A stretch of 54,993 bases of DNA from a virus (taxonomy: Duplodnaviria; Heunggongvirae; Uroviricota; Caudoviricetes): IMG/VR virus record IMGVR_UViG_2923302340_000009, positions 1 to 54,993 of that record; one strand, written 5' to 3'. Below the pieces are notes generated by a model. The model made no database searches. It was not told where the DNA came from and worked only from the letters and a program-made list of their open reading frames with translations. This document shows, piece by piece, positions 25,415 to 54,993 of the stretch. Every line of letters begins with the position of its first letter. The first letter of the stretch is position 1. A program made the position numbers and the translations under genes.

Positions 25415-25425
25415 TGTATCCCCCT

Positions 25426-25767: not shown

Positions 25768-25776
25768 TGCTCCCCC

Positions 25777-27028: not shown

Positions 27029-27034
27029 CAGAAT

Positions 27035-27457: not shown

Positions 27458-27768
27458 GCTGTCTGCTCTCCGGTTTTAACATTGATGGTTGTCACCTGTT
27501 CCGCTTCGGCAATCTCCCGTTCTGTCAGCGTGGCAAAGTTTGCCGCTGCTGTGGTCATAAATGCGCTTATCAGGTCGGGATGTTCCTTCGCGTATCCTGC
27601 CCGTGTGTGGTGGTCTATCGCTTTGATTGCCACCTTTAAGGAAAGCTCTGTCATGTCTAACGCTTTATATTTTGCCTGTGTTCTGTCTCTGCGAATTTTG
27701 GTCATTTGTCGCCCCTGATTCATGTTTTCGGCTGGCATGTTTGTTAAGTGATTTTTATGTATGCGCAT
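27454..27768 (-). CDS. hypothetical protein translationally coupled to ssb
   Basis: 104-aa ORF; stop overlaps ssb ATG (ATGA). Confidence 0.45.
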   Translation of the reverse strand: MRIHKNHLTNMPAENMNQGRQMTKIRRDRTQAKYKALDMTELSLKVAIKAIDHHTRAGYAKEHPDLISAFMTTAAANFATLTEREIAEAEQVTTINVKTGEQTA

Positions 27769-27819
27769 TTATTTTCACCCCCCCTCGTTTAAAAAGTTTT
27801 TAGTTGTGCCTCCCCCCCT

Positions 27820-28045
27820 CTACCCATCTACCCGAATGCTCATCATGTCAGTAATGGCGCCGCTTTCAGCGGGTAGATAGCTTTTTTGACTCCTCTACCT
27901 GCCGTCTACCCTGCTACCTGAAACTGATAAAATCAGGTAGAAGAGGTAGAGAGCTTTTATTAGCCTTCTACCTAGCCCTATATCCACTTATCATGTTGAA
28001 TAATATGCATTTATTTCGTTCAGGTAGATGGGGTAGATGGCTTTT
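27820..28045. repeat. iteron cluster (GGTAGA / TCTACC motifs, about 12 copies in both orientations); putative island replication origin
   Basis: ctctaccc, atctaccc, gggtagat, aggtagaagaggtagag, ggtagatggggtagatgg immediately upstream of primase gene. Confidence 0.7.
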
Positions 28046-28053
28046 ACAAAAAA

Positions 28054-29808: not shown

Positions 29809-30104
29809 TTTTTACCTCTGAATCCGTTAATCATGGTTTTCATTTTCTGGATATTTCCCCACGCTTTTTCCCTGCTGATGGGCTTACTGCGGGGTGCGGC
29901 ATATACCAGGGAAAAATCACGCCGGAACTGATAAACAGGCATCACGCAGTCATAGCTATACCCCTCACGGCGGTAAGTGATGCGCCGTTCTGCCACGCCT
30001 TTAATCGTTACCGTGCCGCCGTATTTATCGCGGTAAATATCGCCGTTCATAAATTCAGGTCGAGCGGGGCCGCTGGCAATAAAGCCAGAATTTTTCATTT
30101 CCAT
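29805..30104 (-). CDS. hypothetical protein
   Basis: 99-aa ORF whose stop overlaps primase start. Confidence 0.45.
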   Translation of the reverse strand: MEMKNSGFIASGPARPEFMNGDIYRDKYGGTVTIKGVAERRITYRREGYSYDCVMPVYQFRRDFSLVYAAPRSKPISREKAWGNIQKMKTMINGFRGKK

Positions 30105-30121
30105 ATTATTTATTCCTCGAC

Positions 30122-30343
30122 TTAACTCGACTTATTTGATAGCAGGGCACTATTTATTGCGTCATTGAGTTTTTCTGCTGATTCATCAATAAGTGACAAC
30201 AGGCCATAAGCAATATTTGCATCTTCATTGTCATTTATGCAATCAAGCCACATATTTAATATTGCTTTTGCTGAATTATTTAAAGTTAATGAACTTTCTG
30301 CACATGCTAACAATTTAAAAAAGACTTCCCGTTCTGTATTCAT
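30122..30343 (-). CDS. hypothetical small protein
   Basis: 73-aa ORF in tightly packed three-gene array. Confidence 0.4.
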   Translation of the reverse strand: MNTEREVFFKLLACAESSLTLNNSAKAILNMWLDCINDNEDANIAYGLLSLIDESAEKLNDAINSALLSNKSS

Positions 30344-30535
30344 TTAATCCCCCACCAGCTTACTTTCTTCCTCAATCAAAAAACTAGCGACACTTCCCGA
30401 AAGACGCGCCAGTAGGCTCGCCAGTGCGGATATATCAGCATCTGTAATTTTGTTCGGGTATACCTCAAGAAGGCGGCAAATAATTTCTGTCTGGTGCGCA
30501 CGTTCAGCGGCTTCGTGTAATGTAATTTCCTGCAT
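30344..30535 (-). CDS. hypothetical small protein
   Basis: 63-aa ORF abutting neighbours. Confidence 0.4.
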   Translation of the reverse strand: MQEITLHEAAERAHQTEIICRLLEVYPNKITDADISALASLLARLSGSVASFLIEEESKLVGD

Positions 30536-30720
30536 TAATGCACCTCTTTTAATTCATACACTGCTGAAATAATGACTTGTGATAAGCCATATTCTGATGA
30601 TTCGCTTCTCACCGCAGCAATAGCCGTCTGAACATTAACAGCCTTCACATTCTGAGCGATACCAATTGTGTGGCCTATTGGGTTAACAGCTCGGGCAAAT
30701 ACACGGAAGGTTTTAAGCAT
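30535..30720 (-). CDS. hypothetical small protein
   Basis: 61-aa ORF with SD GGGAG; first gene of minus-strand array. Confidence 0.4.
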   Translation of the reverse strand: MLKTFRVFARAVNPIGHTIGIAQNVKAVNVQTAIAAVRSESSEYGLSQVIISAVYELKEVH

Positions 30721-31001
30721 GACTCACTCCCTGGCGGATTTTTGCAGCGAATACAGCAACACAACCGGACGGGCAACGGCTACGCGCTTCGCGTTCCGTC
30801 CAGGCGGTTACGTGGATGATTTGAGATTCTCCGGCACTCAGTGCCAGAAAACGCCACACAAAGGCCGTTTGTGTGTGTACAAGGTGTGGTATATGATTTA
30901 CAGCAACCATAACGGCTCCTAGTTTACGTTGTTGGTTAGACGCCCCGTATGTGTTCCCAGCACTGCGGGGCGTTGCTCTTTGTATTTCAACAATCCTTTC
31001 G

Positions 31002-31034
31002 GTGTGTTTCATGTTATGAGCGCATGAAACACAC
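31002..31034. promoter_or_regulatory. 12-bp perfect inverted repeat (gtgtgtttcatg N9 catgaaacacac) in divergent intergenic region; putative operator
   Basis: Lies between minus-strand small-gene array and plus-strand gene at 31101; half-site gaaacacac recurs at about 31071. Confidence 0.5.
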
Positions 31035-31100
31035 GTCAAGGCTTTTTGTATTTCTTTTTTTGTGTATACTGAAACACACCGATGATTAGGAGTTTCAGAA

Positions 31101-31406
31101 ATGGCAACGGCTAACAAAAACGCAAAATCACAACTGACAACTGTCAGAGTCCCACTAGATGTTATGCAAGGGATGGAATCCGTTAAGCTGGACGGTGAAA
31201 GCAATGCCGGATTTATCGTAACCGCCATGCGCGGAGAAATAGCCCGCCGCCAAGCAGAAGGCAGCGGAGAAAATCCCCTTGTGTCGTCACTGGATGCCCT
31301 GGCTAAGGTCGAACAAATCGGCATCAAAGCAGCCGAGGAGATCGGGCAACTCGTCACCGTCGCGCGTGAAGAACTCCAGCGACGCAAGGTCAAAGAGCAT
31401 GAATAG
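31101..31406 (+). CDS. hypothetical protein, candidate island regulator
   Basis: 101-aa ORF with SD AGGAG; divergent from small-gene array; downstream of operator-like repeats. Confidence 0.5.
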   Translation: MATANKNAKSQLTTVRVPLDVMQGMESVKLDGESNAGFIVTAMRGEIARRQAEGSGENPLVSSLDALAKVEQIGIKAAEEIGQLVTVAREELQRRKVKEHE

Positions 31407-31463
31407 CCAATATCAGCGCCATAGTTTGAGGAACGCAGGCGCATTGCTTTACAGGACAGCACC

Positions 31464-31643
31464 ATGAGCGACACAGAATCAACCAAAACACCATCACCAA
31501 CTCGTAAGAGACGACGCAAAAATATAGCGCATGAACATGAATCAGAAAGATTCGCACCTTGTTCGTTTGCTCTTGAGAAATTCCTTAAAGAGCACAGGAA
31601 AAAGCTCTCGTTGCAAACCTTGGAACGAACCAAATCTGACTGA
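31464..31643 (+). CDS. hypothetical small basic protein
   Basis: 59-aa ORF (not in track, below 60 aa) MSDTESTKTPSPTRKRRRKN...; followed by terminator. Confidence 0.3.
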   Translation: MSDTESTKTPSPTRKRRRKNIAHEHESERFAPCSFALEKFLKEHRKKLSLQTLERTKSD

Positions 31644-31709
31644 TCACATTGCCCACCAGCCGCAAATGTGGCATTGTTGGTGATGCTTTTGTTTTCCCTT
31701 GTTCCCACT

Positions 31710-31740
31710 GGCGACCCTTTTGCGGTCGCCTTTGTTTTGT
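31710..31740 (+). terminator. rho-independent terminator for plus-strand island genes
   Basis: ggcgacc-cttttgc-ggtcgcc hairpin followed by TTTGTTTTGT. Confidence 0.55.
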
Positions 31741-32318
31741 CACTGAATGCGGTTACCAAAGTAAAACTCAGGCTGATATTCACGTATCAGCGTTTTTTCT
31801 TCTTCCTCCAGCTCACGCTTTTTGCGCTTACATGCCTGTAGCTCCCTCCCCTTCTCGCTGGCACTTATTTGATATTGCTCTTTACGGCGGGAAAAATCCT
31901 GTAATGCACCCCACGGGATACCATAAGTCCCCGTTTTTCTGATACCTGGTATCACATTTCTGAATACCCAGTTACTGAAACGATGAGCAAATGTGCCAGG
32001 CGTCGTTGCTTTGCGGCTGCGGGCTATTAGTTTGTAGAAACCTGACTCAGAGATAATTCTCATATTCTGATTTCCTCCTGGGGTGTAAGTTAAATTTACT
32101 CCCTTTTCATCATCATCAAGCATCTGCAACGCCGTACGCGAATTGGTTAGTTCCAGCGCAGCACAAACATCTTTTGCAACAAACCACGGATCGCCGTTCA
32201 GATACACCACACGAACGTTCACACTATCAAAGCGCAGAACGACGAGATCACGAATATCGCAGAATTTTTTCACTGGACGAGCGTACCCCTTGCCCGTCAC
32301 GGCAATATTTTTATTCAT
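31740..32318 (-). CDS. BRO-N domain protein (antirepressor-like)
   Basis: N-terminal VVLRFDSVNVRVVYLNGDPWFVAKDVCAALEL resembles Bro-N/KilA-N family. Confidence 0.65.
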   Translation of the reverse strand: MNKNIAVTGKGYARPVKKFCDIRDLVVLRFDSVNVRVVYLNGDPWFVAKDVCAALELTNSRTALQMLDDDEKGVNLTYTPGGNQNMRIISESGFYKLIARSRKATTPGTFAHRFSNWVFRNVIPGIRKTGTYGIPWGALQDFSRRKEQYQISASEKGRELQACKRKKRELEEEEKTLIREYQPEFYFGNRIQ

Positions 32319-32334
32319 CGCGTTTTTACCTTAT

Positions 32335-32361
32335 AGACAAAAAACCCCTCGTGATGAGGGG
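32335..32361 (-). terminator. rho-independent terminator downstream of alpA
   Basis: On minus strand cccctcatcacgagggg followed by TTTTTTGTC. Confidence 0.55.
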
Positions 32362-32374
32362 CATTATTTACTGG

Positions 32375-32632
32375 TTATTGCTGTTTTGTTTTTCCAGGTT
32401 TCCATCCAGGATGCCACTCACCACGGATCCATGCCTGAACCTCTGAAAGTCGATACCCTGCAGCACGTTCACCGATCTTGATACGTCGCGGGAATTTACC
32501 TGCCTGCTCCATTTTCCAGCGTGTTGAGTTTGCCAGCGTGGTAAGTGCTATGCACTCTTTTTCACGAATGAACCGATCAATGTCCTTCATTGTGCGCAAA
32601 TCGTTTTCATCAACAAGAGAATAAATTGCCAT
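32375..32632 (-). CDS. alpA: AlpA-family transcriptional regulator/excisionase-like protein
   Basis: 85 aa; ...FPRRIKIGERAAGYRLSEVQAWI motif; immediately downstream of integrase. Confidence 0.75.
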   Translation of the reverse strand: MAIYSLVDENDLRTMKDIDRFIREKECIALTTLANSTRWKMEQAGKFPRRIKIGERAAGYRLSEVQAWIRGEWHPGWKPGKTKQQ

Positions 32633-32633
32633 A

Positions 32634-33875
32634 TCACACCACCTCTTTATTAAGCTCGATAACGTTGTTGTTAAATCCTGCTATCGTATTAAGGTAATTA
32701 ACCCACATATTAAGCACCTCAAGTTTTTTCTTTATATGCCTGCTTTTATTGTAAACACCAGCAACCCCTTTCACTTTATGACCTAAAAGAAGTTCGACAA
32801 TATAAGGATCCGCCCCCATATCATTAAGCGTAGTGGAAAATGTGCGCCTGAAATCATGTATGCACCACAAGCCATTAGTATCATGACCAAGACGCCTGCA
32901 TATTCTGTTTGCAGCCCCTGTTATTGTCGCCCTTTGCAAAGCACAACCGACAACATAACCGCGATTTTTTGTTTCTGCGTAAAGATTAACGATCCATTGT
33001 TTTATTCCGTCAGGAACAGGCCTTACTATAGCCTCCTTGTTTTTGCTGTGCTCTTTTGGGACTGTCCATACCCAGTTTTTTAAATCCCATTCGTCCCAGG
33101 TGGATAGCCTCGCCTCCTGCTGTCGGCAACCAAACACCAGGCAGATAACCATTATTCTTCGGTTATATATTGATGACAGAGTTAGCAAATTATTACCGTA
33201 AGCATAAGACCATACATCAGCGGTTTCATTGATATTAAGAACGCGATCCCTTATACCGGATGAGCGCCCGACATAACTTACGTTAATATCTCCAAAGGGA
33301 TCGCACGCGATGTATTGCCTGACGCGACAAAAACGCAACGCCTGTTTGATATCAAGAAAAATTGCACCAGACATAACAGGCGCATTTTTTTTGATCCTGT
33401 CAAAGACGGTAAGCCATGTGTGTAATTTGCACTGTTCTATAGCCATATCACCGATATAGGGGAAGATATGCTTTTCAAATCGTTTTATTAAATATTCATG
33501 CTCTTTTCTGGCTGTTGTGGCGTGATTGTCGTACCAGTAAAACAGCGCATCCCTTACGGTCACTGGTTGCATAGTTTTTTCGGCAGCAAGTTTTATTTGC
33601 CTGCGGGGGTCCAGATTTTCAGCCAGCCATTCACGGCACTGATCACGCATGCGCCTGGCCGTTGCAAGAGACATGTCAGGATAGCGACCAAGTGTAAGCC
33701 ATACCGGAGGGAATTCCCTGCCACCAAGACGATAGTAAAAAACAAAGCTGATCCCCCCAACCATGCTTACACGCACAGACAACCCGCGCCCATCCGCTAT
33801 TGTTTTTTGTTTGTCCTGCCGTTTTCCGACAAGACTCTTTAACAGTTTGTCACTGAGTTTGTTTTCAATAGCCAT
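32634..33875 (-). CDS. int: P4-type tyrosine integrase
   Basis: 413 aa; P4-like N-terminal arm-binding region and C-terminal HDFRRTF...LLGH...Y catalytic region; adjacent to island end. Confidence 0.85.
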   Translation of the reverse strand: MAIENKLSDKLLKSLVGKRQDKQKTIADGRGLSVRVSMVGGISFVFYYRLGGREFPPVWLTLGRYPDMSLATARRMRDQCREWLAENLDPRRQIKLAAEKTMQPVTVRDALFYWYDNHATTARKEHEYLIKRFEKHIFPYIGDMAIEQCKLHTWLTVFDRIKKNAPVMSGAIFLDIKQALRFCRVRQYIACDPFGDINVSYVGRSSGIRDRVLNINETADVWSYAYGNNLLTLSSIYNRRIMVICLVFGCRQQEARLSTWDEWDLKNWVWTVPKEHSKNKEAIVRPVPDGIKQWIVNLYAETKNRGYVVGCALQRATITGAANRICRRLGHDTNGLWCIHDFRRTFSTTLNDMGADPYIVELLLGHKVKGVAGVYNKSRHIKKKLEVLNMWVNYLNTIAGFNNNVIELNKEVV

Positions 33876-33893
33876 TAAAAGCCCTCAAGAGAT

Positions 33894-33947
33894 TTGCAAT
33901 ACACACCCATCCCGATCGCCAATTTGCAATACACATTGCAATACACA
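33894..33947. repeat. three direct copies of TTGCAATACACA next to integrase start (putative arm-type binding sites)
   Basis: Copies at about 33894, 33924, 33936; same motif at left island end. Confidence 0.55.
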
Positions 33948-34023
33948 AAACCGCGAAAAACTGGAAGGGTGATGAACGGTCATCAAAAGCATGGAAAACG
34001 ACATTCCAGACGCAGCAAGGGTT

Positions 34024-37004
<2,981 letters not shown>

Positions 37005-40025: not shown

Positions 40026-40829
40026 ATGACAGAAAAAGATAACATTGGTAAGTTAATTTGGCATATTGCTTGCGATGAATCTGGCATTGATGGGCAACGT
40101 TTCTACGGCTTTGGCAGTCTGTGGATGAAGTACCAACGCCGTGGGGATTTCTGTCAACTAATCAGAGAACTACGCAGCAAACATGGTTTTTTTGAAGAAA
40201 TAAAATGGCAAAAAGCCCATTCAAAAAGATACTCTGAATTTTATCTTGAGCTGATCGACTTATTCTTTAGAGTTCCTTGGCTAGCTTTTCATTGTATCGT
40301 GGTTGAAAAATCAATAGTAAACAAGGCATTTCATAATGGGGATTATGACCTGGCAAGGAGAAAGCACTTCACAAATCTCATTACCACAAAAATTAGCTCT
40401 GTAATTTCTGCACACCCTGAAAGAGACAGTTACTTCAGGATTGAAGTTGATCCTATCGCATCTCGTTATAAAAAGGCCGATGAAGAACTAAATGTTATTG
40501 CCAATAACATATTGAATAGAAAATTTGGTCGTAAAGGGATAATCAGCAGTGTAGTGACAAAAGACTCTAAAGCATCTGAAAACATTCAGCTAGCCGATTT
40601 TTTCTTAGGTGCGGTTATGTGCGCATATCAAGGAAAAGCTTCATCTGAAGCCAAAATAAGAGTATCAAACTATGTTGCTTCATATTTAGGCTGGGATCAT
40701 TTGCAATATGATACATGGCACACTGAGAGAAAATTTAATATCTGGTATTTTTATGATAAAACTCGAGGGCCACGAGATATAGAAACTCAAAATGTTAGCT
40801 TAAAGTATCCACTTCCCCAAAAGAAATAG
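40026..40829 (+). CDS. DUF3800-like protein (moron between Q and lysis genes, opposite strand)
   Basis: N-terminal DESG motif (IACDESGIDG) and C-terminal QLAD motif (IQLADFFLGAV) characteristic of DUF3800 as I recall it. Confidence 0.6.
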   Translation: MTEKDNIGKLIWHIACDESGIDGQRFYGFGSLWMKYQRRGDFCQLIRELRSKHGFFEEIKWQKAHSKRYSEFYLELIDLFFRVPWLAFHCIVVEKSIVNKAFHNGDYDLARRKHFTNLITTKISSVISAHPERDSYFRIEVDPIASRYKKADEELNVIANNILNRKFGRKGIISSVVTKDSKASENIQLADFFLGAVMCAYQGKASSEAKIRVSNYVASYLGWDHLQYDTWHTERKFNIWYFYDKTRGPRDIETQNVSLKYPLPQKK

Positions 40830-41050
40830 ACGTCGACCTCTCAGCCGACACGGTTGGAGTCCCAGACCAATTATCGAGTCGAAGTTACCAACTTGGCGGT
40901 TATCTTTTGGGAGCCGCCCCTTCATTCCCAAAACCTTTATTGCAGAAAAATCTATATCCTGGAAATTGGATAGTCAACCCTTACGACACCTACGAACAGT
41001 TGCACATACAACATTGGCAAAATATCAGATTTACACGGAATATATGCCTT

Positions 41051-41740
41051 TCAATCCAGTTTTGCAATACTTTGCTGTGAAAATGTCGTCTTTTGTTTTG
41101 AACGTGTTCTCGTTACAAGCAATAAAGCTTCGCTATCAAGCTGTAGAAAAATGTGCTTCATTGCAACCCAGCGTTCAGTAAATGTCTCAGACCAGTTTTT
41201 TGATGTCACTCCCACCAGTGATGCCAGCTCCTGGTATTCATAGGTCTTACGCCCTGCCAGCTCATTCTTCACATCCTGTGCCGCCAGCCAGATCAACTTC
41301 TTCAAACGTTCCAGTGTCTTACCTGCAATTTTCCTGGTACCCAACAGAGTCTTAAACTCGCTCCATACCCACTGCGTTATGGTGACCTGATGTTCCCAGC
41401 GAACACTTTCGCTGTAACTCCACAGCAACCACGCTTTCTGATGTTCTTCGAGAGACAGAACCGCGCGGCGCCATGAAGATGTTGAGAACTCAACCTGGCT
41501 GACCAGTGCAATGGATGAACCTTTTGCGTACGACTGCTTACCGGAAATCGGCGGATTATCCAGCGTAATCATCTTGCCCGTTACCTCATCCAGAATGCGC
41601 GGCTTCTTTCGTTTATATGTACCAGTATCAAATTGTGCATGCTCCAGCCAGGCTTCAAGCTGGCCTTTCGTTGCTCCGCTCAAATCAGCAGTAGCCACAA
41701 TGAGTTGCTCGCGGACATACTGTAAATATTGGGTATTCAT
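41051..41740 (-). CDS. putative late-gene antiterminator Q-like protein
   Basis: 229 aa at the Q position between rusA and lysis cassette; start at internal ATG with SD AAGGAG; assignment by synteny. Confidence 0.55.
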   Translation of the reverse strand: MNTQYLQYVREQLIVATADLSGATKGQLEAWLEHAQFDTGTYKRKKPRILDEVTGKMITLDNPPISGKQSYAKGSSIALVSQVEFSTSSWRRAVLSLEEHQKAWLLWSYSESVRWEHQVTITQWVWSEFKTLLGTRKIAGKTLERLKKLIWLAAQDVKNELAGRKTYEYQELASLVGVTSKNWSETFTERWVAMKHIFLQLDSEALLLVTRTRSKQKTTFSQQSIAKLD

Positions 41741-41873
41741 GCGGCAGCTCCTTTCAGTGTTTTGGCGTAATTCTTCAGTATTCGGTAATCGGTCAAAACA
41801 GAACCGGGGAAACGATATAAGCGCAGACGCCACCAGCGGTGGCGAAGAAGTTCTGCCATATAAAACTCAAACA

Positions 41874-42236
41874 TCATTCATTCCCCATTTCGGTGATGGT
41901 CAGTTCCAGCCTCCCACCTTTGGTAACAGGCATCTTCACAACGCGGTAATCAACGACCTGAGCATCATCCAGCCAGAAACCTGCTTTGGTGAGTGCGTCA
42001 AAAGCGGCTTTTTGCAGATTATCCAGGTCACGGCGACGGCGATCCGGCATGTGGCACTCAATACGGATTTTCACTGGCATAGCCAAGCCGATATCCAGCA
42101 TTGCGTTTTTAATGATTCGGGCGACGTTATCACGGTATGCCTGCCCTTCTGCGCTGATGTGCGTGCGCCCGCGATTATGCCTGTAGTAGCGGTTATTGCT
42201 CGGCGGCCAGGGTAGTGTGATGTGGTAAGTATTCAC
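41874..42236 (-). CDS. rusA: Holliday junction resolvase RusA
   Basis: Matches E. coli RusA ([25 protein letters not shown]...), GTG start. Confidence 0.9.
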
Positions 42237-42523
42237 GCCTTGATTACCCCCTCTTTCAGCCAGATAACCTGCGTTCTCGCCATACCTTCCAGCGCGCATT
42301 CTTTTGCGTACTCAGCATCGACAAAATGCGTGCGGCGGTCGATTTCGTCGTGACAGGCAGAACAGGCAATGGTGGCAATAAGGTCTGGCGGTTTGATACC
42401 GGTACCGCACAATCCAGCCAGCCGGATATGTGCCAGTACTGACGTTTCAGGATTGCCATTACATACGCCAGGGATTCTTACCTGGCATTCCCGACCACGC
42501 GCTGCTTTTCTCAAATCAGCCAT
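42233..42523 (-). CDS. ybcO: YbcO-like nin-region protein (DUF1364, Cys-rich)
   Basis: Matches DLP12 YbcO from [23 protein letters not shown]. Confidence 0.8.
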
Positions 42524-42686
42524 GATTCCTCCTTGCTGCCAGTCGCAACCATTTTTTATCAACCAGGCTGGCGGTATACCCGAGCAGTGTTGGTATTTCG
42601 GATGGCTTCAGCTCAGGTTTACGCTTACGACGATTTGGTACTTTGTAGATGTGTCCGTTCATGACACGAATAAGCGGTGTAGCCAT
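42516..42686 (-). CDS. ninE: NinE
   Basis: 56-aa [40 protein letters not shown]... (not in track); overlaps ybcN stop and ybcO start. Confidence 0.7.
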   Translation of the reverse strand: MATPLIRVMNGHIYKVPNRRKRKPELKPSEIPTLLGYTASLVDKKWLRLAARRNHG

Positions 42687-43141
42687 TACGCCTCCTGCTT
42701 GTCGCGCAGCAGCTGGAACTCGCAGCTCTGCGGAATAGTCAGGTGGCAGCCAATATTCATCGCCCAGGCTTCAACCTTACACAGGAAGACATACATCTCT
42801 CCGGTATCAAGATCGGAGGTATGGCGTAACGACTGGATAGTAGTGATTTCGCCGGTTACGACATCAACCAGGTCCTTGGTTTCATAACCGAGGTATGTGT
42901 GTTTGAGAGCATCTTTTACCCAAGCTGGAGTAGCAAACGTTTTACCCCTGCTGATGAGGTACTCACTAATTTCGCTGTACCACATGTGGCTAAGTGCATT
43001 CTGGGAAAGACTGCGTCTCTTGCGCCACGGTTTAAGCACCATGCGAAAGCATTTGCCTTCCTCCAGATAAGGCTGGATCTGCTGGCCGATAGCGGTGAAG
43101 TTGCCGCGATGTAATTTGATGCCGTCTTGTGAGAGGTTCAC
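42686..43141 (-). CDS. ybcN: YbcN-like protein (DUF1367)
   Basis: 151 aa, matches DLP12 YbcN. Confidence 0.8.
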
Positions 43142-43328
43142 GCTTCACCTCCGCAGAGGTCAAACGCTAGATGCAAAGAATTGCAGGTGCATTTCTGCAT
43201 CTGTGAAGGGAGAAGAGAGTTTGGATTGTATGTGCGCATAAACGTCCCCGTTTAGCGCAGAAGTCACCGGAGTTGTTCAGGCTCCGATGACATGATTATG
43301 GCTAATAGCTTAGTTTTTATCAATTGTA

Positions 43329-44639
43329 CTATGGATTAGAGAGTGAATCTGGATGTGGTATTTCAGCCATGACCTCCTCTGCATCACAGTTGTCGATAAA
43401 AAAGTATAAAGTTGAGTCAACAATTTTTAAACGCCTGGTACCTTGATCATAATCGAATAATGGCGGAACGATATTCTGATTTGTTTGAAGTATAGGCAAT
43501 CGCTTCAGTGTCCCTGTTACATCAGAAGTTCTGACGTTATCAGGATGAGTATGTATTTCTTTAATAAGTTCCTGTAGAGTCTTTCTCTCAATCCCATCCT
43601 TGAGCTCAGAATAAGTTCTACTTAACAGAACTTGAACTAAATAATACTGAAGATACAAAGCCACAGCCTCTTCACTTGGCCTGCGACTTCGACTCCCTGC
43701 GGCAATTGACTCAAGACTACGGACATGTCTTGACGAATAATCTGCAACCTTAACGTCAATTGCTCTTTGTAGAACGGCCATATCACTCAAATAAACTACT
43801 TCTTGTTGGACCATTCGTATTCCTGACAATTCACAAAGTTGCTTAAGAAGCTCTTGCACTACTGCAACACTTCCATGGGCCTCTTCAAATATACGCTCTT
43901 TAATTTGCTCTGAAATAGATATATTTAAACACTGCTCGCCAACTGTAGCGATTCTTGAAAAGTCACCTTTATCCCATGGCTCAACAGGAACCTCAGCCAT
44001 ACGGTCCTGTAAGTCGCCATTAAACTGAATAAGACGATTATTTTCTCTCCATACTCCGAGTATGATAAATCTAATACCCATTTCTTCAAATGTACGAAGA
44101 TCAAATGCCAACTGTCCTTGAACTTCAACAGAGAGATAATGAAAGTTTTCGAGAACGAAGAACTTATCCTTCCCGCCAACATTAATCAATAATTCTCCTA
44201 CATCTTGTGCCGCCGTCAAGTTGAACTCAATCGGCCTAGATTTTGTTTCTGTATTTTTGGATATCGTCCCTTCAACCCCCGCCTCTACTTCAGTTTTTGC
44301 TAAAAATGGCAGGATGGCAGAAAAAGTGCTTTTTAAAGACGCTGAAGCCTCCTTAGAGTTACCTGTTGTTCTCTCGGTAATAATTTCCACTCCAAAGTGA
44401 CGTAAAAATGTACGATAGATATCTTCCGCAGAATTGGTGGGACCACAATGATATGTAACCCTGCTGTTTTCATCTAAATGGCGCTGAAGTAAGGCTGTTT
44501 TCCCTTGTTTTGATGAGCCATAAATCACGATCTGCTTCGTCGTTGCAAGTGCATCAGCAAGTGCCTGATCGACCTTTTCACGTTCAATATAGCTGGCTAC
44601 CGGATCTCTTGATACTCCGAATACATTATTTAGATGCAT
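43329..44639 (-). CDS. P-loop NTPase (AAA-like ATPase) of unknown function; nin-region moron
   Basis: Walker A GSSKQGKT, Walker B-like FFVLENF; AT-rich gene flanked by AT-rich DNA. Confidence 0.6.
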   Translation of the reverse strand: MHLNNVFGVSRDPVASYIEREKVDQALADALATTKQIVIYGSSKQGKTALLQRHLDENSRVTYHCGPTNSAEDIYRTFLRHFGVEIITERTTGNSKEASASLKSTFSAILPFLAKTEVEAGVEGTISKNTETKSRPIEFNLTAAQDVGELLINVGGKDKFFVLENFHYLSVEVQGQLAFDLRTFEEMGIRFIILGVWRENNRLIQFNGDLQDRMAEVPVEPWDKGDFSRIATVGEQCLNISISEQIKERIFEEAHGSVAVVQELLKQLCELSGIRMVQQEVVYLSDMAVLQRAIDVKVADYSSRHVRSLESIAAGSRSRRPSEEAVALYLQYYLVQVLLSRTYSELKDGIERKTLQELIKEIHTHPDNVRTSDVTGTLKRLPILQTNQNIVPPLFDYDQGTRRLKIVDSTLYFFIDNCDAEEVMAEIPHPDSLSNP

Positions 44640-44825
44640 GGTTCATTTCCTTGTTATAAAAGAAAAATCTTAGCATATTAATACATTAATAACTTCCGCC
44701 CCTTGTTTAACTGTACAATTAATAGACTTTTATGCCTCCTACCCAATGACCGGAAGAATATCCGTAATACCTAGCCCCATTTATCACCTTGTCATGAGTT
44801 GAATCCGAGGTCCGTAGCCTCCCTA

Positions 44826-44860
44826 GCAAAATAGCCCTCCATTCGGAAGGGCTATTTTTA
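44826..44860. terminator. bidirectional rho-independent terminator
   Basis: 11-bp stem aaaatagccct / agggctatttt with A-tract before and T-tract after. Confidence 0.55.
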
Positions 44861-45028
44861 GATTGTTATAAATCGAGCAGTTTCCCAATGAGTGGAGAGC
44901 ACTAAAATGTCTAAATAGTCATAAGGGCAATATCCAAAATCTCCAACAACAATTGGTAGTCTTATAAATTACTCAGTTCAACATACGGTAGGTGTGTTTC
45001 TAATTGATGAAGTAGCATGGTGCGTTAT

Positions 45029-45361
45029 TTAATGTAGTGCACTTCGTGACAACAAATTAATCACCAACACACCGGCACAAATCAACATCATGCCTATAAT
45101 GGCTGGCAGGTCCAGCCGTTGGCCGAAAAATCCCCATGACAGTAAGCTAATCAGGACAATCCCGACTCCTGACCAGATAGCATAAGCAATCCCTGTAGGA
45201 ATATAAGCCAGCGTCTGAGCTAATAACCAGAATGATGCACAGTAACAAATAATTGTACCAACAGATGGCCATAACCGTGTAAAACCTTCTGAAAACTTCA
45301 TTAAGGTTGTACCAATGACCTCTGCAAGTATTGCACCACCAAGATAAATATAAGGGTTCAT
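45029..45361 (-). CDS. emrE: small multidrug resistance efflux protein EmrE
   Basis: 110 aa from MNPYIYLGGAILAEVIGTT; near-identical to E. coli EmrE. Confidence 0.92.
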   Translation of the reverse strand: MNPYIYLGGAILAEVIGTTLMKFSEGFTRLWPSVGTIICYCASFWLLAQTLAYIPTGIAYAIWSGVGIVLISLLSWGFFGQRLDLPAIIGMMLICAGVLVINLLSRSALH

Positions 45362-45428
45362 AGCATATTCTTTCCTGTTCAAACTGGAGAGAATTGTACT
45401 ACAGTTTGAACTCAACTCACCTGTTTCA

Positions 45429-45731
45429 TCATTGTGTTCCCATTGATGTTCTTTTATATACCCTCAATACCCGTTTCATCGCGGCACTCTGGCGACACTC
45501 CTTAAAAATCAGATTCGTGCTCACCTTTCCTTCCCGTTCTTCTCTGGTAGCGAACCGGTAATACACCGTTCGCCAGACCTTACCATCAACGACCAGGATT
45601 CCTGCCCGCGCCATTTTAGCCGCAGCCTGATTTATGCTGGTTACGGTTGCGCCTGTTACCGCGGCAACGTCCTGTGCACAGAAGCTCTTATGCGTCCCCA
45701 GGTAATGAATAATTGCCTCTTTGCCCGTCAT
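45429..45731 (-). CDS. ren: Ren protein
   Basis: Matches lambda Ren (MTGKEAIIHYLGTH...). Confidence 0.85.
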   Translation of the reverse strand: MTGKEAIIHYLGTHKSFCAQDVAAVTGATVTSINQAAAKMARAGILVVDGKVWRTVYYRFATREEREGKVSTNLIFKECRQSAAMKRVLRVYKRTSMGTQ

Positions 45732-46429
45732 ACACTTGCTCCTTTCAGTCCGAACTTAGCTTTAATTTCTGCGATCTTCGCCAGAGCCTGTGCACGATTT
45801 AGAGGTCTACCGCCCATAACAGGAAGTTGTTTTACTGGTTCAGGTATCGTCTCACCACGGTTAATTCGCGCTGTCATACAGGTCAGTTCATCGGCAGCCT
45901 TGCGCCGTAATTCCGCGTCAGTCAGCGCATTGGCCCGCATGTTCTGGTACAAGTTGGTAACCAACCAGTAATGCGCGTTCGATTTCCACGGATAAGACTC
46001 TGCATCCGGATACAGGCCACGCTTCCGGCAATACTCGTAAACCATATCAACCAGCTCGCTGACGTTTGGCAGCCCGGCGTTAACAGATGCTTCTTCCCGG
46101 CACCAGGCGACAAACTGCCCGGGTGATGGCAGGAATGGTCGATTCTGCCGACGGGCTACGCGCATTCCAGCGTTAACCTGTTCCATTGTGGTGATCCCGT
46201 TTTCCCGGAAAGCCAGAACCCACTGGCAGCGGATTTCGTTCAGTTCATTCTGGTCACGGTTAGCCAGGCTCGCCGGGAAAGTTGCCAGTAACTGGCTGAA
46301 CACACCGTTGATGATCTGCGCTACCTGCTGTACCTGTGGCTTTTCGTCGTACTGTTCCGGCATGTTGTTGGCGATCCGGCGCATCTGCTCACAGTCAAAG
46401 TTAACCATCTGTGCGGCGATGTTTTTCAT
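45728..46429 (-). CDS. P: replication protein P (helicase loader)
   Basis: 233 aa, matches lambda P. Confidence 0.95.
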   Translation of the reverse strand: MKNIAAQMVNFDCEQMRRIANNMPEQYDEKPQVQQVAQIINGVFSQLLATFPASLANRDQNELNEIRCQWVLAFRENGITTMEQVNAGMRVARRQNRPFLPSPGQFVAWCREEASVNAGLPNVSELVDMVYEYCRKRGLYPDAESYPWKSNAHYWLVTNLYQNMRANALTDAELRRKAADELTCMTARINRGETIPEPVKQLPVMGGRPLNRAQALAKIAEIKAKFGLKGASV

Positions 46430-47355
46430 AGCTCCACCCCGTAAATCCAGTCAGTGTTCGTCAGGTCGAGTTTTGGTTTGCCGGCTGTCACGCCAGCCTG
46501 TTGCTTGTTTCGGTTGATTTCGAGCTGGGTCCACTTGTCGCGGAGTTTGGCCGGACTTAGCACGTTACCGGACCAGAAGTTGTCCTGGCATGCCCAGCGG
46601 AACAGCACGCACATGTCGCGGTGGTTACGTCCGTCACGTTCACGCATCAGGCGGATATCGTTAGCCCACCCTGCAAAATTCGGTTTTCTGGCTGATGGCG
46701 CGATGGTCTTCACCATGTCAAACATCCACTCTGCGGCGGTCAGGTCTTCTGCTGTCCCCCACTTGCTGCCGCTCTGAATTGCAGCATCCGGTTTCACCAC
46801 AGGAAGATCGTTTTCTGGTTGGTCAGAGGATTCGCCAGAATTCTCGGACGAAAAAGGTTTTATATTGTCTTTTGTTAGTTTGTCTTTTGTGTTTACCTGA
46901 TTCGGGTAAACGCCTTTACCTGATTTGGGTAAACTTTTTTTACCTGATTCAGGTAAATTTACCTCTTTCAGGTAAACTTTATTTTTCTTACCTGATTCGG
47001 GTAATGTTGACCATTCACTGACCACATTATTAATGCCGGTATTCCGCCCGCTCTGAATAAAAATCCCACGCTTTACCAGAACACTTTTTGCAGCAGAACA
47101 CTTGTGCGGCAATATCCCGGTTAATTCGGAAAGTTGCTCGTTGCTCACCCAATCCAGTTTTTTATTAAAGCCATATGTTTTGCGCATGACAGCCAGAAAG
47201 ACCAGAAGCTGGTGCTGTGTTAATCCGGCCAGCATCACAGCTTCCAGCAACTCATTTGCAATGCGCGTATAACCATCATCGAGATCTGCCACGCGCGGCT
47301 CCTTTTGTGCCGCATCCGGCACTGGAAAATTGAATATCTCAGCAGTGTTTGCCAT
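46426..47355 (-). CDS. O: replication initiator O
   Basis: C-terminal half matches lambda O, N-terminal domain divergent; start MANTAEIF with SD GGGAGG. Confidence 0.9.
   Translation of the reverse strand: MANTAEIFNFPVPDAAQKEPRVADLDDGYTRIANELLEAVMLAGLTQHQLLVFLAVMRKTYGFNKKLDWVSNEQLSELTGILPHKCSAAKSVLVKRGIFIQSGRNTGINNVVSEWSTLPESGKKNKVYLKEVNLPESGKKSLPKSGKGVYPNQVNTKDKLTKDNIKPFSSENSGESSDQPENDLPVVKPDAAIQSGSKWGTAEDLTAAEWMFDMVKTIAPSARKPNFAGWANDIRLMRERDGRNHRDMCVLFRWACQDNFWSGNVLSPAKLRDKWTQLEINRNKQQAGVTAGKPKLDLTNTDWIYGVEL
46893..47004. repeat. ori iterons inside O gene (about 5 copies of ttacctgattcgggtaa-like palindromic repeat)
   Basis: Repeats tacctgattcgggtaaa, tacctgatttgggtaaa, tacctgattcaggtaaa, cctctttcaggtaaa, tacctgattcgggtaat within the O coding region. 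Confidence 0.75.
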
Positions 47356-47441
47356 AATTCCTCCCGCAATGAGTGTGTTACGATTTGCACCTGAAAGTCG
47401 GTTCTGTTCCAGCAGACCGGCTTTCGCCATTTCTGAACCTG

Positions 47442-47981
47442 TCATATCGCCCCCAGCATGGTAGTAACCATCGCCATCAATGGACCAGCCAGATCTGGGT
47501 CCACACGAAACATCGACACAATACCTTCACTAATTTCCTTCAGTTTCTGGTGGCGTGGTGCGTTGAGAATGACAGCCTGTTTTGCCTCACTGAGTTCCTT
47601 TTCCATTTCAGCCAACCTAGCCATGAAGCTATCCTGCTCAACCAGGTAACCGCGATATTCCAGCGGTAGTACCGCCAGAATTGCCGGGGTCAGTTCACGC
47701 ACGTTATTTCGGTATTTTTCAGAATCGAATTTGTTATCGAGGAAGCGGAACAGCTTCTGGCGTGCACGGCTGACATCATCAGGGAAATCGATGGTGCCGC
47801 CGCCCTGCTCCCGATACTCATTCACAATGAGTGTGGCAACGACATCCTGATTATCTACAGCCGACCAGGCGCGGACGGCATCACGGATTTTTTCGTGGCC
47901 TGGCACCTGTTTTGTTTGAGAACGATTTATCACCGCAGTCGGGCTAAATCCGCTAGTCTGTTGGTATGTAAGTGGTTGCAT
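47442..47981 (-). CDS. YdaT-like protein (cII position)
   Basis: 179 aa; EYREQGGG...LTPAILAVLPLEYRGYL pattern resembles Rac-prophage YdaT family. Confidence 0.5.
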   Translation of the reverse strand: MQPLTYQQTSGFSPTAVINRSQTKQVPGHEKIRDAVRAWSAVDNQDVVATLIVNEYREQGGGTIDFPDDVSRARQKLFRFLDNKFDSEKYRNNVRELTPAILAVLPLEYRGYLVEQDSFMARLAEMEKELSEAKQAVILNAPRHQKLKEISEGIVSMFRVDPDLAGPLMAMVTTMLGAI

Positions 47982-48050
47982 AATTGACTCCTTTAGTTTG
48001 AATTGACTGTTAAGTTGATTGCTTATTGTTAAAGAGCGTGAAATGGAAAT

Positions 48051-48281
48051 TTAAGCTGCGTTCTTTTCGGTGTGTGGAAACAACTTCGGAAGATCCGGGC
48101 GAATCTGGTATGCCTTCACTACTCCACCAGTAGCCGTAACAATGCTGCCGACATGTTCAGGGGATACCTTTGCTTTGTTGTGAAGCCACTTATAGACGGC
48201 CTGCTGTGAAACTTCGCAAGCAGCGCCCAGTTTCTTTTGTGAACCAACGATATTGATCGCTGTTTTGATAGCTGGGTTCAT
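48051..48281 (-). CDS. Cro/YdaS-like HTH regulator
   Basis: 76-aa HTH protein divergent from repressor; SD GGAGG. Confidence 0.65.
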   Translation of the reverse strand: MNPAIKTAINIVGSQKKLGAACEVSQQAVYKWLHNKAKVSPEHVGSIVTATGGVVKAYQIRPDLPKLFPHTEKNAA

Positions 48282-48385
48282 AACAACCTCCGTGGTTAAT
48301 TTGAATCAAGATTAAAACTATGGTTGTTTTTAGTCAACAACCATTTTCGCTTGATGGAATAAAACCTTGGTTGTACATTTGGACT
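48282..48385. promoter_or_regulatory. rightward-operator-like region between cro-like and cI-like genes with AACAACCAT half-sites
   Basis: ATGGTTGTT-N7-AACAACCAT perfect inverted repeat plus AACCTTGGTTGT; divergent gene starts on both sides. Confidence 0.6.
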
Positions 48386-49075
48386 ATGAAAACAACACTC
48401 TCAGAAAGACTTAAAGAAGCCAGATTAGCGCGAGGCCTTACACAAAAGGCGCTTGGGGATTTGGTCGGGGTTAGCCAGGCTGCTATTCAGAAAATCGAAA
48501 CAGGGAAAGCTAATCAAACAACTAAAATCGTGGAGATCGCGAACGCTTTGGGTGTGCGCGCAGAATGGTTATCTTCTGGCGTTGGAAATATGTCAGACAG
48601 TACAGTGCAACCAATACAATCAACTGTCAGCCATTCCAAATACTTCAAGATTGACGTTCTTGATATAGAAGTCAGTGCTGGGCCGGGAGTCATCAACCGT
48701 GAGTTTGTAGAAGTTCTACGCTCGGTTGAGTACTCGTTTGACGATGCTCGTCACATGTTCGATGGTAGGAAGGCGGAAAATATCCGCATCATTAACGTGC
48801 GTGGTGACAGCATGTCAGGAACGATCGAACCAGGTGATCTGCTGTTCGTTGATATCACAGTTAAATCTTTCGACGGTGATGGTATCTATGCGTTTCTGTA
48901 CGACGACACAGCCCATGTAAAGCGCCTGCAAATGATGAAGGATAAGCTGCTGGTCATCTCTGATAACAAAAGCTACTCACCGTGGGACCCGATCGAGAAA
49001 GACGAGATGAACCGGGTGTTCATCTTCGGTAAGGTTATTGGGAGCATGCCGCAGACATATAGGAAGCATGGGTAG
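48386..49075 (+). CDS. CI-like repressor (HTH + LexA/S24 peptidase domain)
   Basis: HTH TQKALGDLVGVSQAAIQKIE; S24-like C-terminal domain with Ser (GDSMSG) and Lys (HVKRL); start at internal ATG 48386. Confidence 0.8.
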   Translation: MKTTLSERLKEARLARGLTQKALGDLVGVSQAAIQKIETGKANQTTKIVEIANALGVRAEWLSSGVGNMSDSTVQPIQSTVSHSKYFKIDVLDIEVSAGPGVINREFVEVLRSVEYSFDDARHMFDGRKAENIRIINVRGDSMSGTIEPGDLLFVDITVKSFDGDGIYAFLYDDTAHVKRLQMMKDKLLVISDNKSYSPWDPIEKDEMNRVFIFGKVIGSMPQTYRKHG

Positions 49076-49195
49076 TACCAATTAAAAATTATCAACTGGG
49101 CATTGTGCTCATTCAGTAAAGAACTAATTCCTATCTTTGCTCTAGGTAGTAATATTAAGCCACCGCAATAATATCTTTACCTAACGGCGTAAGAA

Positions 49196-49222
49196 TCCCG
49201 GTCACCGTGCCGGGTTTTCTTT
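49196..49222 (+). terminator. rho-independent terminator downstream of cI-like gene
   Basis: cccgg-tcaccgtg-ccggg hairpin followed by TTTTCTTTT. Confidence 0.5.
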
Positions 49223-49364
49223 TGCCCTCCCCTCATCACACACACCGTTAAAAAAACCACCATAACCTCGCTTCAGTTATCGCTATGCGATTCAAGTCAC
49301 AAAATAAATCCATCCTAAATACAACCAGTTATATCTAAAACAACCAATAAAACAACTTTTGTTG

Positions 49365-49393
49365 TTGACGATAAAACAACCATGGTTTTAAAT
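49365..49393 (+). promoter_or_regulatory. pL-like promoter with operator palindrome in spacer
   Basis: -35 TTGACG, 17-nt spacer containing aaccatggtt, -10 TTAAAT; further AACAACCA half-site upstream. Confidence 0.5.
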
Positions 49394-49586
49394 AAGTTCA
49401 TCGCAACAACACAACGATACGGCAACTACCTGATTCACCGTTGCGATGACCGCTTAGATCCGCAGTTTGAATTTCAGCAGGCTTCGGGGAGTGCGAGGGG
49501 TGAAACGGACGCGTGAACGTCGGTGTGACCAGCTGAAATTAACTCAACATTTCATACCTTAGTCGCTTCAACGAGGCGGCTTAGTT

Positions 49587-51717: not shown

Positions 51718-51869
51718 CGCATCCTCACGATAATATCCGGGTAGGCGCGATCACTTTCGTCTACTCCATTACAAAGCGAGGCTGGGTATTTCCCGGCCTT
51801 TCTGTTATCAGAAATCCACTGAAAGCACAGCGGCTGGCTGAGAAGATAAATAATAAACAGGAGGATATA
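51714..51869 (+). CDS. small ORF downstream of exo (lambda orf60a-like N-terminus)
   Basis: 51-aa [31 protein letters not shown]...; ATG overlaps exo stop. Confidence 0.45.
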
Positions 51870-52933
51870 TGAGTCAGGTTGGTAATCATTCATTCGAATT
51901 TCCGGCATCGCAAGGTGTACAGGGTGGTACTGTTACACTCTTCCTTACCATACCAGGAAGATCGCTGGCTCGTTTCCTCGCTTCAGATAATTACGGCCAT
52001 ACACTGGAACGCTCTCAGCGAGAAATTAATCCAAATCGAGTACGAAAATTTTTAAATTATCTCACTAACGCAGACTCAAGAAATGAGCCTTTTATCATTC
52101 CCCCTCTCGTAGGTAACTGTGATTCGAATATAGAATTTGTACCGTTTGGCAACACAAATGTTGGTATAGCCAGAATTCCCCTCGACGCCGAAATAAAACT
52201 TTTTGATGGTCAACATCGTGCAGCTGGCATTGAGATATTTTGCCGAAGCTCCCCATCAACGCTCATGGTTCCCATGATGCTTACAATGAATCTGCCGCTA
52301 AAAACCCGGCAGCAGTTCTTTTCGGACATAAATAACAACGTTTCTAAGCCATCAGCGACCATCAATATGGCGTATAACGGCCGGGATGATATTGCTCAGG
52401 GAATGATATCCTTCCTGACCCAACATACTGTATTTGCCGATATAACCGATTTTGAACACAACGTAGTGCCATTAAAAAGTAATATGTGGGTGAGTTTCAA
52501 GGCACTCACTGATGCAACGTCAAAGTTCGCTAGGAACGGCAATCAACAACTTGAAATGGGATATATAGAATCTGTCTGGGAGGCATGGATTACACTAACT
52601 CAGATTGACTCAATTCGACATGGTGTACACCACGCTACGTACAAGCGCGATTATATTCAGTTCCATGGAGTAATGATTAACGCTTTCGGTTTTGCGGTTC
52701 AACAGATGATGGTTAATCATTCCATCGCAGAAATAACTTCTATGATCGAAAAACTATGTGCAACTACCAGCTCTGCAGAAAGAGAGGATTTTTTTCTGAT
52801 GGATAACTGGGCGGGGATCTGCACGAAAGCCAGCCAGGAAAAACTATCTGTTATTGCCAATGTGGCAGCGCAGAAAGCAGCAGCAAACAGACTGATACAA
52901 GCTTTTACCAAAGGAAGTCTGGAAACAACTTAA
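51869..52933 (+). CDS. DGQHR-domain protein (DndB-like), stand-alone
   Basis: Exact DGQHR motif (KLFDGQHRAAGIE); 354 aa; SD AGGAGGA; between exo and xis. Confidence 0.65.
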   Translation: MSQVGNHSFEFPASQGVQGGTVTLFLTIPGRSLARFLASDNYGHTLERSQREINPNRVRKFLNYLTNADSRNEPFIIPPLVGNCDSNIEFVPFGNTNVGIARIPLDAEIKLFDGQHRAAGIEIFCRSSPSTLMVPMMLTMNLPLKTRQQFFSDINNNVSKPSATINMAYNGRDDIAQGMISFLTQHTVFADITDFEHNVVPLKSNMWVSFKALTDATSKFARNGNQQLEMGYIESVWEAWITLTQIDSIRHGVHHATYKRDYIQFHGVMINAFGFAVQQMMVNHSIAEITSMIEKLCATTSSAEREDFFLMDNWAGICTKASQEKLSVIANVAAQKAAANRLIQAFTKGSLETT

Positions 52934-53631: not shown

Positions 53632-53974
53632 GGCCTGTCAGTTTCTTAAGATATCCAGACCAACCGCCACCAACTGGATACGAACAGGCCGCCTACAGGC
53701 AACACGTAAAGATCCAACCAAGCCAAAATCTCCTTACCTCACAACACGGCAAGCCTGCATTGCGGCGCTTCAGTCTCCGCTGCATACTGTCCAGGTGAGC
53801 GCGGGTGATGGCATAACAGAGGAAAGAAAATGTCACTCTTCCGCAGAAATGAAATATGGTATGCCTCGTATTCGCTCCCGGGCGGGAAACGAATTAAGGA
53901 ATCTCTTGGCACAAAGGACAAGCGGCAAGCTCAGGAGTTGCACGACAAGCGAAAAGCAGAACTCTGGCGTGTAG
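53603..53974 (+). CDS. xis: excisionase-like HTH protein
   Basis: [34 protein letters not shown]; SD GAGGT; C-terminal part overlaps int by about 145 nt, so 3' extent uncertain. Confidence 0.55.
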
Positions 53975-54993
53975 AAAAGCTAGGGGATTTACCTGATGTC
54001 ACTTTTGAAGAGGCCTGCCTAAGATGGCTTGAGGAAAAAGCTGATAAAAAATCTCTCGATTCAGATAAAAGCCGGATTGAGTTCTGGCTTGAACATTTTG
54101 AGGGTATAAGGCTTAAAGATATCTCGGAGGCAAAGATTTACTCTGCTGTAAGCAGAATGCATAACAGAAAGACGAAAGAAATATGGAAACAGAAAGTTCA
54201 GGCCGCTATCAGGAAAGGTAAAGAACCGCCTGTTTATGAACCAAAGCCAGTATCAACTCAGACAAAGGCAAAGCATCTTGCCATGATAAAGGCCATTCTC
54301 CGTGCTGCAGAACGCGACTGGAAGTGGCTGGAAAAAGCGCCTGTCATCAAGATACCAGCGGTCAGAAACAAGCGAGTCAGATGGCTGGAAAAGGAGGAAG
54401 CAAAACGCCTTATTGATGAGTGCCCCGAACCACTGAAATCTGTCGTCAAGTTTGCGCTGGCAACTGGTCTGAGAAAGTCGAACATCATAAATCTGGAATG
54501 GCAACAAATCGACATGCAGCGACGAGTTGCCTGGGTGAATCCAGAAGAGAGCAAATCAAACCGCGCCATTGGTGTGGCGCTGAACGATACCGCCTGTAAA
54601 GTGTTGCGTGATCAAATAGGCAAGCATCACAAATGGGTGTTTGTACATACCAAGGCGGCTAAGCGAGCAGATGGAACATCAACGCCTGCGGTCAGGAAGA
54701 TGCGCATCGACAGCAAGACATCATGGCTATCAGCTTGTCGTCGTGCAGGAATTGAAGATTTCCGTTTCCATGACCTCAGACACACCTGGGCAAGCTGGCT
54801 GATTCAGTCAGGCGTCCCATTATCAGTGCTTCAGGAAATGGGCGGATGGGAGTCCATAGAAATGGTTCGTAGGTATGCTCACCTTGCGCCTAATCATTTG
54901 ACAGAGCATGCGAGGAAAATAGACGACATTTTTGGTGATAATGTCCCAAATATGTCCCACTCTGGAATTATGGAGGATATAAAGAAGGCGTAA
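53830..54993 (+). CDS. int: phage tyrosine integrase (DLP12 IntD-like)
   Basis: 387 aa; C-terminal catalytic motifs HDLRHTWAS...GGWES...MVRRYAHL; resembles E. coli DLP12 IntD; stop at window end. Confidence 0.9.

Follow-up and report, generated by a model that had tools for sequence, protein, structure and literature searches.

An emrE allele carried as cargo by a DLP12-type lambdoid prophage, bordering a low-GC slot

The multidrug transporter EmrE is a four-helix, 110-residue member of the small multidrug resistance (SMR) family, Qac subfamily, that forms an antiparallel homodimer. Its substrates include ethidium, methyl viologen, quaternary ammonium compounds and acriflavine. Carriage of the gene by DLP12 and other lambdoid prophages is already known, emrE being annotated there in thousands of genomes and published in 2020 for isolated phages. 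In E. coli K-12 the DLP12 copy (b0543) lies directly after ren, in the order renD (split by IS3), emrE, ylcJ, ybcK, ybcL, ybcM, ylcH, ybcN. The O-P-ren-emrE arrangement in isolated phages was reported by Mathieu et al. 2020 (PMC6969025). Isolated phages with emrE, which include Lambda_4C10, 4A7, 1W, 3W, Perceval and PhiR34_1, show 96-99% nucleotide identity over O-P-ren-emrE, which is followed by variable cargo and then by ybcN-ninE-ybcO-rusA. Phage lambda has neither emrE nor a cargo slot; its ren is followed by a GC-rich hairpin with a T-run and then by ninB, about 70 nt after ren. The lambda hairpin is presumably tR2.

The window analysed here, the whole 54,993-nt stretch of a Caudoviricetes record in IMG/VR (IMGVR_UViG_2923302340_000009), carries a copy of the gene at 45029-45361 on the minus strand. 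With a probability of roughly 90%, this copy is a functional emrE allele and moron-type cargo of a DLP12-type lambdoid prophage, placed right after ren at the edge of a low-GC slot. The coding sequence runs from an ATG at 45361 to a TAA at 45029-45031 (110 codons plus stop). The open reading frame listing also holds an alternative TTG start at 45415 that gives 128 aa, whereas the ATG form has the canonical EmrE N-terminus MNPYIYLGG. The match to EmrE is far above chance. Pfam PF00893 gives 121.6 bits (E = 2e-35; residues 3-94 against profile positions 2-93 of 93), the PDB EmrE entry 3b5d aligns over 1-110 to 1-110 (E = 1e-67), and the NCBIfam models NF042984 (SMR_efflux_EmrE, specific to EmrE) and NF007087 score 238 bits against a cutoff of 226 and 233.8 bits against a cutoff of 162. 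By PF00893 and the full-length alignment, the protein is a single SMR domain of about 110 aa spanning four transmembrane helices. It is identical to K-12 EmrE and PDB 3b5d at 107 of 110 residues, the changes being I100V, T108A and P109L, and it retains E14, K22, Y40, Y60, A61, W63, G65, G67, I68, I71, D84, G97 and H110. The conservation and roles of these residues, among them the essential, membrane-embedded E14, are described in PMC12234006 or belong to established EmrE biochemistry. The window thus holds an intact emrE copy, and the description of the gene as near-canonical SMR in an earlier, sequence-only reading is borne out by the identity to K-12 EmrE, the NF042984 score and the key residues.

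The integron- and plasmid-borne SMR pumps QacE, QacG, QacL and Qac-pB8 belong to the same Pfam family, have the same length and align with EmrE end to end. However, Qac-type NCBIfam models score the window protein at 84-125 bits, far under their own cutoffs of 185-220, and the vehicle differs, since emrE is almost never plasmid-borne. Given 97% identity to characterised EmrE and the solved structures, the window protein would export cationic drugs in a proton-coupled manner, with protons bound at Glu14 exchanged for cationic, mostly aromatic, toxic compounds.

The neighbourhood of the gene is lambdoid. Along the minus strand, emrE is preceded by a YdaS/Cro-like gene (48051-48281), a YdaT-like gene (47442-47981), the replication genes O (46426-47445) and P (45728-46429), and ren (45429-45731), the last backbone gene before the cargo. 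Pfam matches in the replication module (P and O, 45728-47445) are PF06992 at 204.8 bits and PF04492 at 116 bits. The 100-aa ren product is identical to lambda Ren at 83 of 92 residues (90%), and its homologue is annotated as 'protein ren' in matching genomes; it adjoins emrE, so the gene does lie after ren in the replication/nin region as the sequence-only reading had it. Beyond the slot on the same strand follow ybcN (42686-43141, by family match and by annotation in a matching genome), ninE (42516-42686), ybcO (42233-42562) and rusA (41874-42299), the last two by family match, then Q (41051-41833) and the lysis genes. An integrase identical to IntD of DLP12 at 385 of 387 residues is encoded at 53830-54993, where the window ends on the right; the argU attachment site lies beyond the window.

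DLP12 and the window thus share the integrase type (IntD, 99%) and the nin genes ybcN, ninE, ybcO and rusA, and the set of IntD-type integrase, ren-emrE and ybcN-ninE-ybcO-rusA modules is present in the window. Because of the integrase at 385/387 and the O-P-ren/nin gene order, the window is best read as a DLP12-type lambdoid prophage, a fuller relative of the cryptic DLP12 of K-12. The K-12 prophage lacks O and P and has IS3 inserted in ren, whereas the replication module of the window is complete. Nucleotide identity to DLP12 is 98.5-99.7% over 45028-46039, with the ren-emrE stretch at 98.5%, and 95.8% over 41736-43300. Lambda shares the backbone in P and ren at 94% nucleotide identity, and this homology ends within the 3' end of ren, at 45456. 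SfI, PA28 and Stx1a phages match ren and P, not emrE.

The distribution of emrE follows the same pattern. Of 5426 complete E. coli genomes, 3692 (about two-thirds) carry the gene, at 4161 places, one of them on a plasmid. The reading frame is intact in nearly all of these genomes, and matches cover at least 80% of emrE in 3682 of them. Two nucleotide classes can be told apart. Class one, with 95-99% identity, comprises about 1400 genomes; class two, with 90-95% identity, comprises 2285 genomes and sits between fliE and yedF as fliE-emrE-ybcL-ybcM. A fliE-emrE junction is present in 2595 of the 5426 genomes (about 48%), and most other E. coli copies are in the O-P-ren-emrE arrangement. The 80 IMG/VR loci fit the order O-P-ren-emrE, variable cargo, ybcN: ren is directly upstream in 75, O and P only in one, at least one lambdoid backbone gene is upstream in 76, and three have none. 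All E. coli and viral copies whose flanks were examined are located within lambdoid prophages or their decayed remnants. Plasmid carriage was considered as a vehicle and rejected, as only three PLSDB records (393 kb, 1.3 Mb and 4.9 Mb) carry the gene, all typed as non-mobilizable and the two largest chromosome-sized.

The fliE site itself is a decayed lambdoid remnant. Homology to the window ends there at the emrE stop, and scraps of ylcH-region and quuD DNA follow ybcM. Compared with the window, the fliE-locus copy, e.g. in ST131 strain MNCRE44, has the same 76-nt leader and cassette ends at about 92% nucleotide identity, but no ren, P or O and only scraps of nin and Q DNA. Two sampled fliE loci (L004, 9001-9333, and L173, 6001-6333) encode proteins identical to that of the phage lineage or one residue different, the L173 protein being 110/110 identical to that of the window. 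In Escherichia sp. E1V33, emrE stands alone between folD and ybcH/nfrA, i.e. in the DLP12 neighbourhood as an argU-region remnant, and the gene is also kept in other Escherichia species. In Citrobacter, Kluyvera, Erwinia and Pantoea, whose homologues are 75-78% identical, the tested lambdoid markers were not found within 4 kb of the gene. The nearest non-Escherichia homologue, in Citrobacter murliniae (locus L011, 3995-4333; 86% aa identity), is flanked by open reading frames that by eye resemble an integrase C-terminus, YbcV, a NinI-type phosphatase and a hydrolase; it looks like part of a prophage or island remnant.

Downstream of emrE, the window departs from its relatives. A hypervariable cargo slot spans 43301-45027 on the minus strand, between emrE and the ylcH/ybcN nin genes. 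Its GC content of 38-43% (39-43% across about 43250-45400) contrasts with 50-56% in the flanking P/O and nin regions. When 41000-49500 was compared by pairwise BLAST with DLP12, an O157 prophage and Lambda_4C10, backbone homology covered 41736-43300 and resumed from 45028 on, and 43301-45027 had zero homology to any of the three. A multiple alignment of the window, K-12, NH-21 and Lambda_4C10 places the break right after the emrE stop. On both sides the ends of the homologous unit, at 45437 and 45025-45028, are identical in prophage and fliE contexts, which shows that emrE moves as a cassette of about 410 bp with its own leader.

The slot holds a gene for a 436-aa ATPase (43329-44639, minus strand) with a strong match to PADLOC family PDC-S59 (E = 1.5e-72) and a weak one to AAA_22; it has no Pfam match over cutoff and no NCBIfam match. 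PDC-S59 is a candidate defence family. This protein is confirmed as the 3' neighbour of emrE. The sequence-only reading had given the neighbours of emrE as those of DLP12; this stands for ren upstream and for the slot, whereas the ATPase downstream is a difference, DLP12 having ylcJ-ybcK-ybcL-ybcM at that place. Isolated emrE phages differ again: a ybcK-type recombinase follows emrE, in some of them together with an alpha/beta hydrolase, and the pump has a T108/P109 tail, where the window has the PDC-S59 ATPase and A-L. The entire emrE-to-ATPase interval is present in 3 of 5426 complete E. coli genomes and in none of the 80 IMG/VR loci. By exact-protein look-up, the pair of emrE and the 436-aa protein recurs in lambdoid prophages whose immunity and Q/lysis modules are of at least three kinds, and because of this recurrence the pair is a small mosaic unit of its own.

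In keeping with a moron, emrE is an insertion between backbone genes that is missing in close relatives (in lambda, ren is followed by ninB), and its base composition differs from that of the backbone. As to transcriptional autonomy, a terminator-like hairpin (44828-44858) and a conserved -10-like TACAAT are present and no sigma-70 promoter was called. Description of emrE as phage-borne cargo is thus upheld by the low-GC island, the absence of the gene from lambda, the sharp homology breaks at both cassette ends and, fourthly, a leader that shares homology with the sequences 5' of related genes in non-lambdoid surroundings. Within the prophage, emrE is probably best regarded as the conserved left edge of a slot whose downstream cargo is swapped by recombination. 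This singles out the site just after emrE as one where candidate anti-phage defence genes are exchanged.

The 5' leader of about 76 nt (45362-45437, minus strand) travels with the gene and contains the TACAAT hexamer (45393-45398) and a Shine-Dalgarno-like AGGAAAG (45370-45376), both on the minus strand. In the multiple alignment, the 80 nt 5' of the ATG show no differences among the window, K-12, NH-21 and Lambda_4C10. In the fliE-locus copy, homology to the window begins at 45437, 76 nt before the ATG and just inside the ren stop. The leader motif TTCAAACT...TGTAGTACAAT aligns with TTCAAACT...TGTGATACGAT upstream of the Citrobacter and Kluyvera homologues, and the leader stretch TTCAAACTGTAGTACAAT shares a motif with TTCAAACT...TGTGATACGAT/TATAAT upstream of the Citrobacter, Kluyvera, Erwinia and Pantoea homologues; TACAAT is conserved with their TACGAT/TATAAT. 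Since this upstream motif is common to all four genera, the cassette appears to retain a portion of an ancestral 5' region. Relative to the Citrobacter homologues, the stretch between the -35-like and -10-like elements is shorter by about 13 nt in the Escherichia leader.

No sigma-70 promoter was called in the scan between ren and emrE, where only the -10-like hexamer is arguable, from its conservation. The -35 region is poor and the Shine-Dalgarno spacing long, so that expression of emrE may be very low. Autonomous expression is probably weak, and in a lysogen the gene would be transcribed from a weak promoter of its own. The emrE copy of strain ATCC 25922 is assumed here to be of the remnant type. 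In published data, emrE mRNA is detectable in that strain.

An imperfect 13-nt inverted repeat in the leader (45377-45411; arms 45377-45389 and 45399-45411) was considered as a regulatory hairpin or operator and rejected as unsupported. Its fold is no better than that of shuffled sequences (z = -0.94), the right arm lacks complementarity in the sister-species loci L007, L008 and L010, and the repeat is probably without function. A permissive Rfam scan of 44400-45900 for a riboswitch or known RNA element yielded a single, chance-level lncRNA match (E = 0.25), and such an element was rejected. Silencing of the low-GC island by H-NS was likewise set aside, the sole paper found having emrE mRNA lower, not higher, in an hns mutant.

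Past emrE, the hairpin at 44828-44858 is a perfect 11-bp inverted repeat (AAAATAGCCCT / AGGGCTATTTT) with a T-run on either strand. It lies about 170 nt 3' of the emrE stop and, like the post-ren hairpin of lambda, between ren and a ninB/ybcN-type gene. The fold of the 3' UTR (44810-45035) is not significant except for this hairpin. The ren-emrE gap is 67 nt, with no terminator called in it, and emrE is oriented like O-P-ren. During lytic growth, emrE would be reached by read-through from pR, because it lies in the pR direction, no terminator was called between ren and emrE and the hairpin follows about 170 nt downstream of the gene.

The same layout could mean that emrE serves the phage and not the host, being expressed early in the lytic cycle on a pR transcript shared with O-P-ren. 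On the phage side it might help to control membrane potential or small-molecule stress in replication, or lower exposure to SOS-inducing cationic compounds such that mistimed induction is avoided. The shared orientation, the short unterminated gap after ren and the position of the first terminator-like hairpin after emrE all favour such a service, as does the very stable O-P-ren-emrE linkage (at least one backbone gene upstream in 76 of 80 IMG/VR loci). It is nevertheless unlikely to be the explanation, as emrE is intact, with dN/dS of about 0.01, in remnants without phage functions (the fliE locus and E1V33), and experiments in K-12 show a direct benefit to the host: in published laboratory evolution, selection with paraquat and erythromycin favoured amplification of the emrE region of DLP12. 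Phage and host roles are not mutually exclusive, and a phage role is not needed for retention in remnants. Since emrE is kept in remnants that lack every phage function, purifying selection there is the strongest computational argument for a benefit that does not rely on the phage. Cargo with a host benefit is accordingly the reading preferred by us; purifying selection, retention in decayed remnants and the published K-12 experiments suggest that emrE would raise host tolerance to cationic toxins.

How strong this selection is can be estimated from the two nucleotide lineages. Between the window gene and the fliE-locus alleles there are 22-24 synonymous and 0-1 nonsynonymous differences (dS 0.34-0.38, dN/dS 0.00-0.01). 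Because deep synonymous divergence goes with an unchanged protein, strong and sustained purifying selection on emrE is indicated, in phages and in dead remnants alike. Two deeply diverged nucleotide lineages with essentially one protein are good evidence that a phage-delivered pump has been kept for its function.

For the same reason it is very unlikely that emrE is just a neutral passenger, at present functionless in the strain and held in place only by linkage to the essential replication module and to the slot's recombination joint. Neutrality would be unable to yield 0-1 amino-acid changes in 110 codons at dS 0.34-0.38, and the reading frame is intact in nearly all 3692 genomes. In favour of a passenger are the lack of a called promoter for emrE, the absence of about 13 nt between the -35-like and -10-like elements relative to Citrobacter, which suggests weak expression, and an E14Q change in one IMG/VR locus, from which loss of function appears to be tolerated at least occasionally. 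This change, found in one locus among L087-L166, is at the essential proton- and drug-binding glutamate, and the copy would be a natural loss-of-function allele. Frequent frameshifts or stop codons in phage-borne emrE were not seen in the loci of the allele table.

The window allele and that of K-12 differ mainly at one end. Six differences fall in nt 296-333 and two in nt 1-295 (Fisher p = 4e-5), and the last 38 nt (45029-45066, minus strand), encoding I100V and the tail S-A-L-H, apparently differ in ancestry from the remainder of the gene. In the sampled alleles, nearly all amino-acid variation falls at residue 100 and in the tail at residues 108-109. The tail forms seen are S-T-P-H, S-A-P-H, S-A-L-H and S-A-T-H; that of the window keeps H110 and has A-L in place of T-P at 108-109. 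The last four residues of EmrE have been described as a secondary gate against proton leak (PMC12234006).

Possibly, cargo is exchanged in the slot at a joint within the final 38 nt or so of emrE, so that swaps rewrite the tail and the tail alleles are functionally different gating variants and not neutral; the cargo to be swapped would be the ybcK-type recombinase, the PDC-S59 ATPase or ybcL-ybcM. This is considered quite improbable. Two narrower proposals were rejected. The S-A-L-H tail is not strictly tied to PDC-S59 cargo, as the fliE-locus copy L173 encodes an identical protein, and the 3' end of the window gene was not borrowed from the fliE lineage, which differs there too, at 4-5 of 38 nt. 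The concentration of variation in the last 38 nt and the rarity of the emrE-PDC-S59 pairing are new minor details. Variation limited almost entirely to residue 100 and the C-terminal gating tail could guide EmrE biophysics.

Several other features of the window concern the state of the prophage and its further cargo. The lambda-family portal gene is split, with profile positions 2-242 matched at 34024-34905 and positions 238-354 at 22405-23178. Between the halves lies an integrase-bearing element of about 10.8 kb (23179-34023), with genes for an integrase (32634-33875), a D5-type primase-helicase (28054-29808), a second major-capsid-E-like protein (25777-26904), a Nu1-like small terminase (24287-24841), Bro-N, SSB, a head-decoration-D-like protein and AlpA. 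The element looks like a PICI- or P4-like satellite inside the portal gene of its potential helper. An IS66-family element (16554-19169; transposase 16554-18125, accessory open reading frames 18145-18492 and 18492-19169) is located between capsid gene E (19682-20734) and the tail genes, where it may disrupt a head-tail joining gene. With the portal gene split by an element and IS66 among the head and tail genes, the prophage looks defective in the strain at hand, and 'phage-borne' may by now mean 'stranded' for this emrE. The isolated emrE phages are viable, whereas the window prophage has the split portal gene.

A DUF3800 protein matching PADLOC PDC-M04A is encoded at 40026-40829 on the plus strand, in opposite orientation between Q and the holin gene. 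This site is a classic late-region moron position, occupied by a porin or lipocalin in related prophages. A DndB-like (DGQHR-type) protein encoded at 51869-52933 on the plus strand, between exo (YqaJ-like)/bet (RecT-like) and the integrase, may be further defence or anti-defence cargo.
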